Shown: positions 6,802 through 50,764, counted from the stretch's first letter. The stretch is DNA of 64,000 bases from Pseudomonadota bacterium (GCA_039814925.1 JBCCAH010000010.1:21606-85605); one strand, 5' to 3'. Notes: generated by a model from the letters alone, not told the origin. Numbers and translations: made by a program.

Positions 6802-7016
6802 TTTTCCTACTCGCCCCGCCTCCGCTACGCTGCGCCCGGCTCTTTTTCATCGTTGGTCCGGCCTGACAGATCGCTGTTCAGAACCTCTCCCATTGGCCCT
6901 AGCCGAGGGCGAAAGAGAGTTGGAGAAGTGTCAAGCGGCTCTCTGGAGACACATTCCAATAATATCAGCGGGTTATCGCAGTCTCCTCTGCTTGACACCT
7001 GCCAAATGTGTCAAGC
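6802..7016 (+). repeat. Non-coding dispersed element, copy A
   Basis: TTTTCCTAC 6802-6810; TTGGAGAAGTGTCAAGC 6920-6936; AATAATATCAGCGGGTTA 6958-6975; perfect IR GCTTGACAC-N9-GTGTCAAGC 6990-7016. Confidence 0.65.
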
Positions 7017-9093: not shown

Positions 9094-9759
9094 ATGGCAA
9101 CCAAAAACATCCCTGACGCCGACGCGTTGCGCAAAATTGGTCAATCGGTTCGCGAGCGGCTCGAAGCGGATCCAGGTGTCTACAAGGTCGACACCGATAT
9201 GGCCGAGATTTTCGCGGTCGGCGATTTCCTGAGCCAGGAAGAATGCGACCGCCTGTGCGTCATGACCGACCTGATCGCGCGGCCCTCTTCCTTGCATGAA
9301 ATCGGCTATGATAGCGGCTTTCGCACCTCCTATTCCGGCGACCTCGACCCGACGGACAGCTTCGTCAAAGCCATTTCGCGCCGCATTGACGATCTGCTCG
9401 GCGTTAACCCGGAAATCGGCGAGGCCATCCAAGCCCAACGCTATCTCCCCGGCCAACAGTTCAAACCGCATAACGATTGGTTCTACACCACCGAGAAATA
9501 CTGGGAGGGCGAACGCAAACGCGGCGGTCAACGTTCCTGGACGACCATGGCCTTCCTCAGCGAGGTCGAAGAAGGCGGCGAGACCCACTTCACCAAGGTC
9601 GGGATCAAGATCGTGCCCAAGCCCGGCGTCTTGATGATCTGGAACAACGCACTTGAAGACGGATCGCCCAACGAAGACACAATGCACGCGGGCACCCCGG
9701 TTCTTCAGGGGAGCAAATACGTCATCACCAAGTGGTACCGGACACGGCGCTGGCGTTAG
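9094..9759 (+). CDS. 2OG-Fe(II) oxygenase, prolyl 4-hydroxylase-like
   Basis: HxD (PHNDWF), GGETHF, distal His (HAG), VITKW. Confidence 0.88.
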   Translation: MATKNIPDADALRKIGQSVRERLEADPGVYKVDTDMAEIFAVGDFLSQEECDRLCVMTDLIARPSSLHEIGYDSGFRTSYSGDLDPTDSFVKAISRRIDDLLGVNPEIGEAIQAQRYLPGQQFKPHNDWFYTTEKYWEGERKRGGQRSWTTMAFLSEVEEGGETHFTKVGIKIVPKPGVLMIWNNALEDGSPNEDTMHAGTPVLQGSKYVITKWYRTRRWR

Positions 9760-9798
9760 GGCATGATGCCCGCTGTAGGAAAATAGATTCCTCCTTTT

Positions 9799-9876
9799 GT
9801 GAGTCCCCGCGCAGGCGGGGACCTCTTTCAGTTGAGCGCTAAGCCGATGGAGGTCCCCGCCTTCGCGGGGACCCAC
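9799..9876 (+). repeat. 78-bp REP-like double-palindrome element between convergent genes
   Basis: GTCCCCGCGCAGGCGGGGAC and GTCCCCGCCTTCGCGGGGAC hairpins joined by a spacer; second copy at 50321-50398. Confidence 0.88.
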
Positions 9877-9883
9877 CGAGAAT

Positions 9884-11494
9884 TTAAGCCCCCGCCAACG
9901 CTTCCGCGATCAATTTGCGTGTGGGTTCAACACCATACAGCTTGATAAAGCTGCCCATGCGCGGGCCTTGTTCGCTTCCCAGCAGCGTTTCGTATTGCGC
10001 GCGGAACCAGTCGCGCAAGCTCTCGAACCCGTAGGCTTCGACCTTGCCGATTTCGTAGACCATGGTTTGCAGATCTTCGGCGCTCGCATCGGCGGGCGCT
10101 TGGGATAGCCGCGCGTCGAGGTCTTTGAGCGCTTCAATCTCTCCGCCCACCGGCGCGCGTTTTTTCAGCGTCGGCGCTAGAAAATCGCGGTTGTAGTTCA
10201 CCGCGCTCTCAATCAGCGTCAGCAGCACCGGATCGGTCACCGGCTGTCCGGTGTAGCTCGCGACATATTCGGCAAGGTTTTCCGGCGTCGCTTCAAGACC
10301 CAGCACAGACACGAGGTTGAGCAGCAGCGAGTACGGGACGCTCAAGGCGTCGCCCGCGCCCGGCGCTTCGGGCGTATCGATCCGCTCGTTCGCGCGCAGC
10401 AAGTGCCACACCGCGTTGCCTAGCTGTTTGTCGAGAGGTTGGTCGGCCAGACGCTCCCGGAACTGCCAGTAATCGTCGATCGCCTTCGGGATGACGCCCG
10501 CGTGCAATTGCTTTGCGCTCTTGGGGTTGGCGAAGATGTAGAAGCCCAGGCTTTCTTCCGAACCATAGGTCAGCCACTCCTCGATTGAGAGGCCGTTGCC
10601 CTTCGACTTGGAAATCTTGCCGCCTTCCGCGTCGAGGAACATCTCGTAGATCAGGCCCTCGGGCTTTTTACCGCCCAGAACGCGCGCGATTTTGCCCGAT
10701 TGCACGCCGCTGTCGGTCAAATCCTTGCCGTACATTTCATAATCGACGCCAAGCGCCACCCAGCGCATCGCCCAATCGACCTTCCACTGGCACTTGGATA
10801 GGCCGGAAAGCGCCGATTGCTCGACCACGCTGCCGTCTTCGTCGGTGAAGCGGATGATGCCTTCGGCGGCGTCGACAACCTCAATCGGCACTTGCAGCAC
10901 CGCACCCGTCGACGGGCTGACCGGCATGACCGGCGAATAGGTCTTGCGCCGTTCTTCGCCCAAGGTCGGCAGCATGATGTCCATGATCGCGTCAAAGTTC
11001 GTCAGCACCCCTCGCAGCGCGTCGTCAAACGCGCCCGAATTGTAACGGTCGGACGAGCTGACGAATTCGTAGTCGAACCCAAAGCGATCCAGAAACTCGC
11101 GCAGCATGGCGTTGTTATGGGCGGAGAAACTTTCGTGATCGGTGTCGAACGGATTGGGCACGCGCGACAAAGGCTTGTGCAGGTTCGCTTCGAGCAATTC
11201 CTGATTGGGCACATTGCCCGGCACTTTGCGCAAGCCGTCCATATCATCGCTGAACGCGACGAGGCGCGTGGGCTGCCCGGTCAGCGCTTCGTAGGCGCGC
11301 CGCACCAGCGAGGTTCTAAGGACCTCTTGGAAGGTGCCGATATGCGGCAGGCCCGAGGGACCATAGCCCGTTTCGAACAGCACCGGCTCGCCATTGGGTT
11401 TGCCGCCCTTCAGCCGTTTGGCCAGACGCTGGGCTTCCTGAAAGGGCCAGGCCTTGGAGTTTTGTGCGGCTTCGAGAAGGGTTTGATCTGTCAT
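9884..11494 (-). CDS. lysS: Lysine--tRNA ligase, class I
   Basis: ETGYGPSGLPHIGT (HIGH), DDMDGLRKVP, GKISKSKG (KMSKS), GPRMGSF. Confidence 0.96.
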   Translation of the reverse strand: MTDQTLLEAAQNSKAWPFQEAQRLAKRLKGGKPNGEPVLFETGYGPSGLPHIGTFQEVLRTSLVRRAYEALTGQPTRLVAFSDDMDGLRKVPGNVPNQELLEANLHKPLSRVPNPFDTDHESFSAHNNAMLREFLDRFGFDYEFVSSSDRYNSGAFDDALRGVLTNFDAIMDIMLPTLGEERRKTYSPVMPVSPSTGAVLQVPIEVVDAAEGIIRFTDEDGSVVEQSALSGLSKCQWKVDWAMRWVALGVDYEMYGKDLTDSGVQSGKIARVLGGKKPEGLIYEMFLDAEGGKISKSKGNGLSIEEWLTYGSEESLGFYIFANPKSAKQLHAGVIPKAIDDYWQFRERLADQPLDKQLGNAVWHLLRANERIDTPEAPGAGDALSVPYSLLLNLVSVLGLEATPENLAEYVASYTGQPVTDPVLLTLIESAVNYNRDFLAPTLKKRAPVGGEIEALKDLDARLSQAPADASAEDLQTMVYEIGKVEAYGFESLRDWFRAQYETLLGSEQGPRMGSFIKLYGVEPTRKLIAEALAGA

Positions 11495-11561: not shown

Positions 11562-11751
11562 TTTCCTACCCGCTTGACAGTGTCAAGCGCCTGTCAAGCG
11601 CTCAAATCGAGCTTAAAATACTGATAAACATTGTTTTTATGGCAACTTCGCTGGCTTGACACTTGTCCAACACGAAACGCTTTTCGACAATTCATTCGGT
11701 TTACCTCTACGCCGGGGTGAGACCCTAGCCAGACCGCGCTGATGTAGGAAA
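11562..11751 (-). repeat. Non-coding dispersed element, copy B (inverted relative to copy A)
   Basis: TTTCCTAC 11562-11569 and GTAGGAAA 11744-11751 as terminal IR; perfect IR GCTTGACAG-N10-CTGTCAAGC 11572-11599; CTGATA 11621-11626; GCTTGACACTTGTCCAA 11654-11670. Confidence 0.65.
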
Positions 11752-49786: not shown

Positions 49787-50764
49787 TTAGCGCGGATTGC
49801 TCCACCGTGCGAAGATAGCTGTGGGAAGCAACCGGGGGTTTGCCGCGCCCGTCACGGGCTCCTCGCGCACGACCAGGTCGCCGTGTTCGATGACGCCCGG
49901 CAAATGTCTAAGCGCTTCTTGGAGCAGTCCTGCAATTGCGACGCTGCTCATGCGCACGGCGTAGACGGTGAGGAACAGGAATGCGCTGTCGCGGTCGAGC
50001 AACTGCGCGCAATCGCCGACCAGGCCGGGCAAACCCTCTTCCAAACGCCATGTCTCATTCTTGGGTCCGCGGCCGAATTTGGGCGGGTCAAGGATGATGC
50101 CATCATAGCGTTTTTCGCGGCGCACTTCGCGCGCGGTGAATTTGGCGGCGTCGTCCACCAACCAGCGGATGGGCTTGTCCTCCATCCCCGACAGCGCGGC
50201 GTTGTCGCGCGCTTGGGCCACCGATTTCTTCGAGGCATCGACATGAGTGACTTGGCCGTATTCGCTGAGCGCGAGAGAACCGAGCCCGGTGTAGCCGAAC
50301 AGGTTCAAAAAACTTAGCGGCGAGCCCTCGCGAAGGCGGGGGCCTCCATCGTCTTGGAGCTTCGATTGAGAGAGGTCCCCGCCTGCGCGGGGACTCACGA
50401 TTGACCCCATCCAGTCCCACACCGGGGCCATATCGGGGAAGAATTGCAAATGCCGGAAAGGTGTCGGCTGTGCCGAGAAGCGCACGCTGTTCCAATTGAG
50501 CGTCCAATCCGCCGGAGGAGCATCAGGCTCCATAACCCAGCGCCCGCCACCGTCTTCATCGCTGCCCGGAATGAACTCGCCCGCCGCCGGCCAATCGGCA
50601 AGGCGCGGCTGCCATAGGGCTTGCGGTTCGGGACGGATAAAGGCGTGCGGGCCGAACGCCTCGTATTTGCGCCCCGCCCCGCTGTCGAGCAGACGGTACG
50701 CGCCCTCGTCGTTTGGCCACCCGGTGCATTCCATCAGGATCGGCTGTTGCCGCAGTTCCGCCAT
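49787..50764 (-). CDS. Class I SAM-dependent methyltransferase (RlmI/RlmK-like) with internal 26-aa insertion
   Basis: FIRPEPQALW, FRHLQFFP, LNLFGYTG, HVDASKK, DGIILDPPKFGRG. Confidence 0.88.
   Translation of the reverse strand: MAELRQQPILMECTGWPNDEGAYRLLDSGAGRKYEAFGPHAFIRPEPQALWQPRLADWPAAGEFIPGSDEDGGGRWVMEPDAPPADWTLNWNSVRFSAQPTPFRHLQFFPDMAPVWDWMGSIVSPRAGGDLSQSKLQDDGGPRLREGSPLSFLNLFGYTGLGSLALSEYGQVTHVDASKKSVAQARDNAALSGMEDKPIRWLVDDAAKFTAREVRREKRYDGIILDPPKFGRGPKNETWRLEEGLPGLVGDCAQLLDRDSAFLFLTVYAVRMSSVAIAGLLQEALRHLPGVIEHGDLVVREEPVTGAANPRLLPTAIFARWSNPR
50321..50398 (-). repeat. In-frame copy of the 78-bp REP-like element
   Basis: First 28 nt identical to 9799-9826 (GTGAGTCCCCGCGCAGGCGGGGACCTCT); encodes VSPRAGGDLSQSKLQDDGGPRLREGS. 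Confidence 0.9.

Follow-up and report, generated by a model that had tools for sequence, protein, structure and literature searches.

The gene at positions 49787 to 50764 (minus strand) of the 64,000-nucleotide window analysed here encodes P0001, a class I SAM-dependent methyltransferase of 325 residues with an intact open reading frame. The window corresponds to C8:21606-85605 of an Erythrobacter genome of 3.8 Mb and 60% G+C, assembled in 28 contigs. P0001 scores just above the cut-off of PF10672 and is homologous over its full length (residues 7-322, E = 9e-67) to 2IGT, a methyltransferase of Agrobacterium tumefaciens that is its closest solved relative and shares the motif LNLFGYTG. Orthology to RlmI, the 23S rRNA m5C1962 methyltransferase whose name is used in some sources, was rejected: NF053718 gave 43.2 bits against an equivalog cut-off of 575, and its match was limited to the Rossmann core (residues 151-233). 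The gene order is that found around the orthologues, with threonine synthase upstream and FolB, an SDR-like gene and MoaA downstream. The dN/dS of P0001 against its five nearest orthologues was 0.08-0.14 and its motifs are intact; the invariant columns of a 22-sequence alignment are, by construction, also conserved in P0001. The methyltransferase gene is thereby observed to be intact and constrained, not decaying, and this integrity suggests that the loop described below is expressed.

Within this gene, positions 50321-50398 hold on the minus strand a 78-nt doublet of REP units (GTGAGTCCCCGCGCAGGCGGGGACCTC...GGAGGCCCCCGCCTTCGCGAGGGCTCG), composed of two hairpins of the type GTCCCCGC-N4-GCGGGGAC and belonging to a repeat family that we call A. 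The doublet encodes VSPRAGGDLSQSKLQDDGGPRLREGS, residues 123-148 of the protein, which then continues as PLSF-LNLFGYTG. A reading made from the sequence only had described the element as exactly 78 nt long, free of stops and translated ahead of LNLFGYTG, and so we found it in the gene frame, although the freedom from stops is weak evidence alone because four of the six frames of the copy are open. The first hairpin in gene order (50375..50394) reads GTCCCCGC-GCAG-GCGGGGAC on the coding strand and has a perfect 8-bp stem and a 4-nt loop; its head is CGTGA and its tail CTC. The second (50324..50343) reads GCCCCCGC-CTTC-GCGAGGGC on the coding strand and is a GC-ended sub-variant of the family. 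It had been taken for decayed, but it contains only one C.A mismatch, and its GC..GC ends are a compensated variant present also in intergenic copies, for example at C2:179649. Across the window, three instances of the pattern GTCCCCGC-N4-GCGGGGAC were counted, where shuffles gave an expectation of 0.05 and never reached three.

An intergenic copy of the doublet lies at 9799..9876 on the plus strand, between convergent open reading frames (9094-9759, plus; 9884-11494, minus), the usual setting for a REP, and both its hairpins are perfect. The match between the two copies that had been pointed out earlier holds up: the reverse complement of 50321-50398 has its first 28 nt identical to 9799-9876, and BLAST aligned the copies with 88.6% identity over 70 nt. 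The REP units of each doublet are in inverted orientation, and in the minimum-free-energy structure of both copies the left REP pairs with the right one, giving as RNA a long hairpin of -46.3 kcal/mol (z = -4.8) for the coding copy and of -60.5 kcal/mol (z = -9.0) for the intergenic one. Beside the intergenic REP, other notes of the sequence-only reading describe a family of non-coding elements of about 200 bp and GTAGGAAA motifs (window 6802-7016, 9775-9783 and 11562-11751).

REP families in the genome were found with a hairpin census by stem sequence; a list of the most frequent 12-mers was dominated by GC-rich coding words and was useless for the purpose. The scan for further copies yielded about 31 units of family A, mostly arranged in doublets (about 15), with the consensus TGTGA-GTCCCCGC-GAAG-GCGGGGAC-CTC. 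Their heads read TGTGA, GTGA, GCGA, GCGCGA, GTGC or GCGC, and the methyltransferase copy reads tCGTGa. Its closest copies in the genome are at C8:31404 and C2:179594, and the element is a typical member of its family. As is generic for REPs, family A consists of a short GC-rich imperfect palindrome in many dispersed copies. It is mainly intergenic: in a codon log-likelihood test trained on long open reading frames, only 1 of the 15 doublets runs through a coding frame. GC3 frame plots were dropped as too blunt, and the same codon test with relaxed hairpin matching returned mostly chance single hairpins inside genes, which were discarded. The genome contains 25 units of a second family, B, with the consensus CGTC-ATCCCAGC-GAAA-GCTGGGAT-CGC/CCA, a CGTC-1 type.

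The exact family A hairpin occurs 21 times in this genome and 4, 12 and 13 times in three other checked genomes with a family A insert, and was not found in the two closest insert-free genomes. Five of the seven insert-free genomes have zero to two copies of the family, though one has seven. Given its absence from the two closest insert-free genomes, family A is lineage-specific, which agrees in part with the earlier suggestion that the element is active or recent. Against that suggestion, the nearest insert-free relatives of P0001 are at a dS of about 1, so that purifying selection after the insertion is inseparable from that before it and "recent" gets no number, and a RAYT/HUH transposase was sought and not found: PF01797 had no match in this genome, which is 97% complete, whereas 6 of 14 control genomes responded. 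The intergenic copies show no conserved flanks beyond the 4-6-nt REP heads, and thus no mobile unit longer than 78 nt was found.

In-frame elements of this kind are well represented in the literature, and the earlier statement that few such cases are described outside the Rickettsia palindromic elements (RPEs) does not stand. Intragenic REP dimers encoding 20-30 residues have been catalogued in many species (Di Nocera, De Gregorio and Rocco 2013, BMC Genomics 14:522, PMC3733652), including dimers in RsmE, TruB, DnaE2, GlyS and IleRS of E. litoralis, and this kind of event is therefore already in print for the genus. The CGTC REPs of that work have no dedicated transposase (PMC3733652), a conclusion with which the absence of a RAYT here agrees. 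Our elements resemble the CGTC-1 REPs in having an 8-bp GC-rich stem and a 4-nt loop, in forming inverted dimers in an alphaproteobacterial host, and in being mostly intergenic, with a minority in frame encoding 20-30 residues and no dedicated transposase. The CGTC-1 elements of E. litoralis HTCC2594 come from the same genus and give very similar peptides, RHPREGGDP...DPRLRGG in TruB and ...GPRLRGGA in RsmE. Family B of this genome is CGTC-1 proper, and its IleRS insert matches the one of E. litoralis (PMC3733652). Family A differs in its terminal motifs: its head is GTGA or GCGA against CGTC, TGTC or CCTC in CGTC-1, its stem starts with GT or GC against AT, and its tail is CTC against CCA. 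The methyltransferase host gene is absent from the E. litoralis list of PMC3733652.

Two other known systems are close in part. With the REPINs mobilized by RAYTs (Bertels and Rainey; PMC8049555), family A shares two inverted REPs in one long hairpin and dispersed copies, but here there is no RAYT (PF01797) and no GTAG head, the tetranucleotide at the hairpin foot being missing from the family A head consensus, and there are about 15 doublets rather than hundreds. With RPEs, the shared feature is in-frame insertion in conserved proteins that stay intact. The element here has 78 nt, is GC-rich and comes from a free-living marine bacterium, whereas RPEs, compared by description, reside in reduced intracellular genomes, and the fraction of insertions that are coding is much higher for RPEs than for the REPs here. 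RPE-1 elements are AT-rich. Following Ogata et al. 2000 and 2002, PMC10969869 and PMC3733652 describe RPEs as palindromic repeats in frame in conserved housekeeping proteins, with whose fold and function they appear compatible, and PMC10969869 gives about 150 bp as the length of the first-described ones (RPE-1). RPE-4 and RPE-6 have been classed as CGTC-4 and CGTC-1 REPs (PMC3733652).

Comparison with orthologues confirmed the insertion but not its cleanness. The segment from FFPDM to FGYTG has exactly 32 residues in 90 of the 97 fetched loci, covering the genus and the family, and 53 in P0001. In a tree built without this segment, P0001 groups with 17 other sequences, all of them insert-free, in a clade of 98% support. 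Aligned with 2IGT, P0001 faces a gap of 20 residues at the insert site, and the 20-21 residues ahead of strand beta-1 are missing from 2IGT and from most orthologues. A few orthologues have a loop of 34, 40 or 42 residues with no REP there. Neither an orthologous segment of the same length nor an inactivated gene, either of which would have spoken against the insertion, was found. The closest relatives read ATG GGC GAG CAA TTG GCA GGG CGC AGC GAC GCG TCC ACG ATG AAC, and the window gene reads ATG GGG TCA ATC, the 78 nt, and CCG CTA AGT TTT TTG AAC. In place of the relatives' 36 nt the window gene has a 99-nt block (TCAATC, the 78 nt and CCGCTAAGTTTTTTG), with twelve host codons replaced. Exchanging 36 nt for 99 nt gives a net gain of 21 residues, not the 26 expected from a clean insertion. 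The left junction, TCAATC (Ser-Ile; 50399..50404, minus strand), replaces the Glu-Gln codons of the closest orthologues. The right junction, CCGCTAAGTTTTTTG (Pro-Leu-Ser-Phe-Leu; 50306..50320, minus strand), is AT-rich and includes a change of Thr to Phe, written with the rare codon TTT. Because the intergenic copies share only the 4-6-nt heads, these junction bases do not belong to the element in its other copies across the genome. No target-site duplication is visible at the junctions of the methyltransferase insert.

Two side observations concern the set of loci. In L094 (Erythrobacter sp. HI0063) the segment has 34 residues, not 32, and the same loop carries a small GC hairpin, GGGCGCG-CGGGCGAAC-CGCGCCC, which may be what is left of one REP unit or may have arisen in a small event of its own. 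Three metagenome bins labelled Synechococcus sp., Rhodobacter sp. and Novosphingobium sp. (L089, L069 and L088) contain Erythrobacteraceae-type copies that nest in the family tree; these bins are probably mis-binned or mislabelled.

The position of the loop was modelled with AlphaFold, which placed the insert between helix 113-123 and strand beta-1 (151-155, motif I), at low confidence: residues 133-139 have a pLDDT below 50, and the values for the blocks of ten residues from 121 to 150 are 62, 46 and 67. With a mean pLDDT of 64.7, the model, computed from 22 sequences, is mediocre and served only to position the insert between these two secondary-structure elements.

Taken with the dispersed copies, the intact reading frame and the low dN/dS, which bear out the earlier view of a REP-family member in frame in a real and conserved methyltransferase, these data very probably describe a tolerated passenger loop, arising from a REP doublet whose lineage-specific family is a sister of CGTC-1, in an enzyme that stays functional. 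On this account, the coding sequence of a 2IGT-type SAM methyltransferase would have received a REPIN-like doublet from a small lineage-specific REP family, in the linker that joins the N-terminal domain to strand beta-1 (motif I) of the Rossmann fold. A 99-nt block would then have taken the place of the ancestral 36 nt with the frame kept, and the element would be translated as a Gly/Pro/Arg/Asp-rich and probably disordered loop with the net gain of 21 residues. We infer that this loop is neutral and disordered, and it would be a passenger rather than a new functional module. The lost host codons and the lack of a target-site duplication favour an origin by illegitimate recombination, by repair templated on a REP locus, or by an insertion after which the loop was trimmed, and simple cut-and-paste transposition fits less well. 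The passenger model leaves unexplained the twelve replaced codons and the AT-rich junction sequence (TCWATCG and AGTTTTTG) that unrelated insert-bearing alleles share.

The same methyltransferase loop carries REP-type inserts of two families in several separate lineages. Among the best 120 homologues, 13 have inserts in the loop, nine of them of family A, with peptides SPR[EDA]GGDL...GPRLR or ...EAPAFAGA, two of a further family, C (P0050 and P0097; PPR.GEGDH...GGG, in DNA CCTCCCCG...CGGGGAGG), and two, P0025 and P0057, short and matching neither. In the set of fetched loci, family A inserts occur in L028, L029 and L088, and family C inserts in L065 and L078. In the tree, family A alleles occupy at least five separate places and family C alleles four, and constraining the family A alleles to one clade cost 272.6 units of log-likelihood (AU test, p = 2.5e-7), by which a single vertical origin of these alleles is rejected. 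In each genome examined, the insert is of the type of the resident family: the genomes of L065 and L078 contain 27 and 40 copies of family C, the window's genome 2, and the same-genus genomes G011 and G007, whose IleRS loop carries similar elements, 24 and 70. As a separate observation, family C has the form CCCTCCC-N-GGGAGGG, gives the peptides PPR.GEGDH...GGG and LPSGEGLGVGG..., and occupies, in genomes other than the window's, this loop of the methyltransferase and the IleRS loop (L065, L078, L105 and L110). In the published catalogue, the recB genes of two Xanthomonas species are the only pair reported to have a common insertion site, and no loop filled by several families is mentioned; we found nothing in the literature on repeated REP filling of one site beyond the recB remark (PMC3733652).

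Elsewhere in the same genome, the codon-likelihood test also detected REP units that run through open, coding-like frames in IleRS (two sites), in PheT and in GlyS (at least one). The insert HSRAGGNPASDGDGSALDPRLRGDD lies in the editing domain of IleRS, where all relatives have HPMHHLGGFYA, and VVPAKAGTANGQGANLEAIPASAGMT lies at the second site, which repeats the pattern of the methyltransferase loop with three families across the genus. The IleRS and GlyS of E. litoralis contain REP peptides closely similar to those of this genome (PMC3733652). The two in-frame doublets of the IleRS gene (L101) are of the CGTC-1 type and lie outside the window at C2:91461-91531 and C2:90946-91016. The one that replaces the conserved HPMHHLGG adds a net 36 residues and is present only in this genome among 15 relatives; the other is at a variable site that is filled in other Erythrobacter by the same or by two other palindromic families. 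The PheT and GlyS units, likewise outside the window (C20:93638-93753 and C19:382044-382063), give the peptides HSGEGRNP...LDPGLRRG, GPLLSQGI and VTPAQAGNQ...DFGLRRND, and the NCBIfam matches to pheT_bact and glyS are each split into stretches, the first of PheT ending at residue 436, at the insert.

The recurrence raises the question of whether the loop is a true insertion hot spot, to which the resident REP family is repeatedly directed by a cue such as local DNA structure or the sequence around the CAA-TTG (Gln-Leu) codons, and where the event itself leaves the Thr-to-Phe/Tyr change. This we regard as a possibility to be taken seriously, if short of an even chance. The scattered positions of both families in the tree, with the one-clade constraint rejected, and the agreement between insert type and resident family are as it predicts. 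No other loop of the methyltransferase carries REP-like sequence, and IleRS site 2 behaves alike with its three families. The flanks of the window gene are also compatible with an insertion in place: in five of six 50-nt windows they are nearest to the gene's own clade, the sixth, to the left of the loop, being conserved in all clades, and the right junction keeps the clade-specific Ser, so that no tract imported from another insert-bearing allele is visible. On the other hand, no target motif could be defined, neither a hairpin nor a T-run is obvious at this position in the insert-free alleles, and the intergenic copies share no flank past the 4-6-nt head. Selection acting on a permissive linker could alone concentrate the survivors there.

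The junctions carry a signature of their own. Phe or Tyr stands two residues before the Asn of NLFGYTG in 16 of 17 family A entries and in none of 197 insert-free entries, 193 of which have Thr. The exception, L088, keeps Thr and has cleaner junctions, with GEQL and DASTL retained. All five Phe alleles for which DNA is available use TTT and both Tyr alleles use TAT, minority codons with 0.35 and 0.45 of usage, and the next codon is often TTG or TTA. The loci with the change are window 50306-50314, L028, L029 and L126-L129. The window allele and L129, an otherwise unrelated insert-bearing allele of a different clade, share TC[AT]ATCG[TG]GAGT on the left, where TCTATC of L129 is near-identical to the window's TCAATC, and AGTTTTTGAA on the right, which points to common descent of the junctions or a common mechanism. 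Candidate causes of the signature are targeted replacement, short-tract allele exchange and convergent compensation.

Allele exchange would make the recurrence only apparent: short-tract homologous recombination, with the highly conserved flanks …VWDWM and NLFGYTG as anchors, would have spread one or very few old insertion alleles through the Erythrobacteraceae. The near-exclusive link of Phe/Tyr to family A, the uniform use of the minority codons and the two junctions shared across clades are what such spread would produce, and the 50 nt to the left of the loop, with 84-92% identity across all clades, would offer a place for exchange. Other features of the same alleles make us consider this unlikely as the explanation. 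The codon after ATG (Gly or Arg) and the Ser of the AST motif would both fall within the exchanged tract, yet in each allele they are those of its own clade. Between alleles, the spacers that separate the two REPs resemble each other neither in sequence nor in length, and the junction of L088 is different and cleaner. The family C loci examined, L065 and L078, are moreover in genomes rich in family C copies. For the window gene itself, a tract imported from another insert-bearing allele was rejected on the strength of its own-clade flanks.

A functional role for the insert appears improbable. It could have been co-opted, for example as an Arg/Gly-rich, RNA-contacting loop of an RNA methyltransferase, or through the mRNA hairpin of about -46 kcal/mol, which might modulate translation or decay. 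The intragenic REPs of this genome and of E. litoralis are concentrated in RNA-handling enzymes (IleRS, PheT, GlyS, TruB, RsmE and this methyltransferase), the stability of the hairpin still far exceeds that of shuffles, and the recurrent aromatic substitution beside the insert could be an adaptation. Yet the spacer is conserved between alleles neither in sequence nor in length, the loop is missing from most orthologues, the hairpin of the intergenic copy is more stable than that of the coding copy, and the enrichment in large, loop-rich housekeeping enzymes may reflect mere tolerance (discussed in PMC3733652). Finally, although the loop varies slightly in the few REP-free orthologues of 34, 40 and 42 residues, an ordinary variable loop with a coincidental resemblance to a REP or a decaying pseudogene can be dismissed given the 88% identity over 70 nt to an intergenic copy, the full two-hairpin architecture, the fixed segment length in nearly all loci, and the intact frame, conserved motifs and low dN/dS of the gene.

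The passenger loop is accordingly the reading that we retain for the window gene, and it represents a well-resolved case of selfish palindromic DNA turned protein in a free-living marine alphaproteobacterium, with the ancestral state given by about 100 orthologues. In-frame REPs were already known in the genus; less expected, and of broader interest, is that in related bacteria elements of different families have come to occupy one and the same linker of a conserved enzyme time and again, with junctions that resemble replacement, not simple insertion. Tentatively, and with more doubt than confidence, we suggest that this linker and IleRS site 2 are mechanistically targeted landing sites, at which a replacement event overwrites 12-36 nt and leaves an AT-rich junction (AGTTTTTG, Thr to Phe/Tyr). 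Should tolerance and selection be all that is involved, the case would be an ordinary one. Should the landing be targeted, REPs would be mobile without a transposase, by way of repair or recombination, and would create protein loops in the process, which would bear on how RAYT-less REPs move and on the share of surface-loop diversity in housekeeping proteins that comes from mobile DNA.
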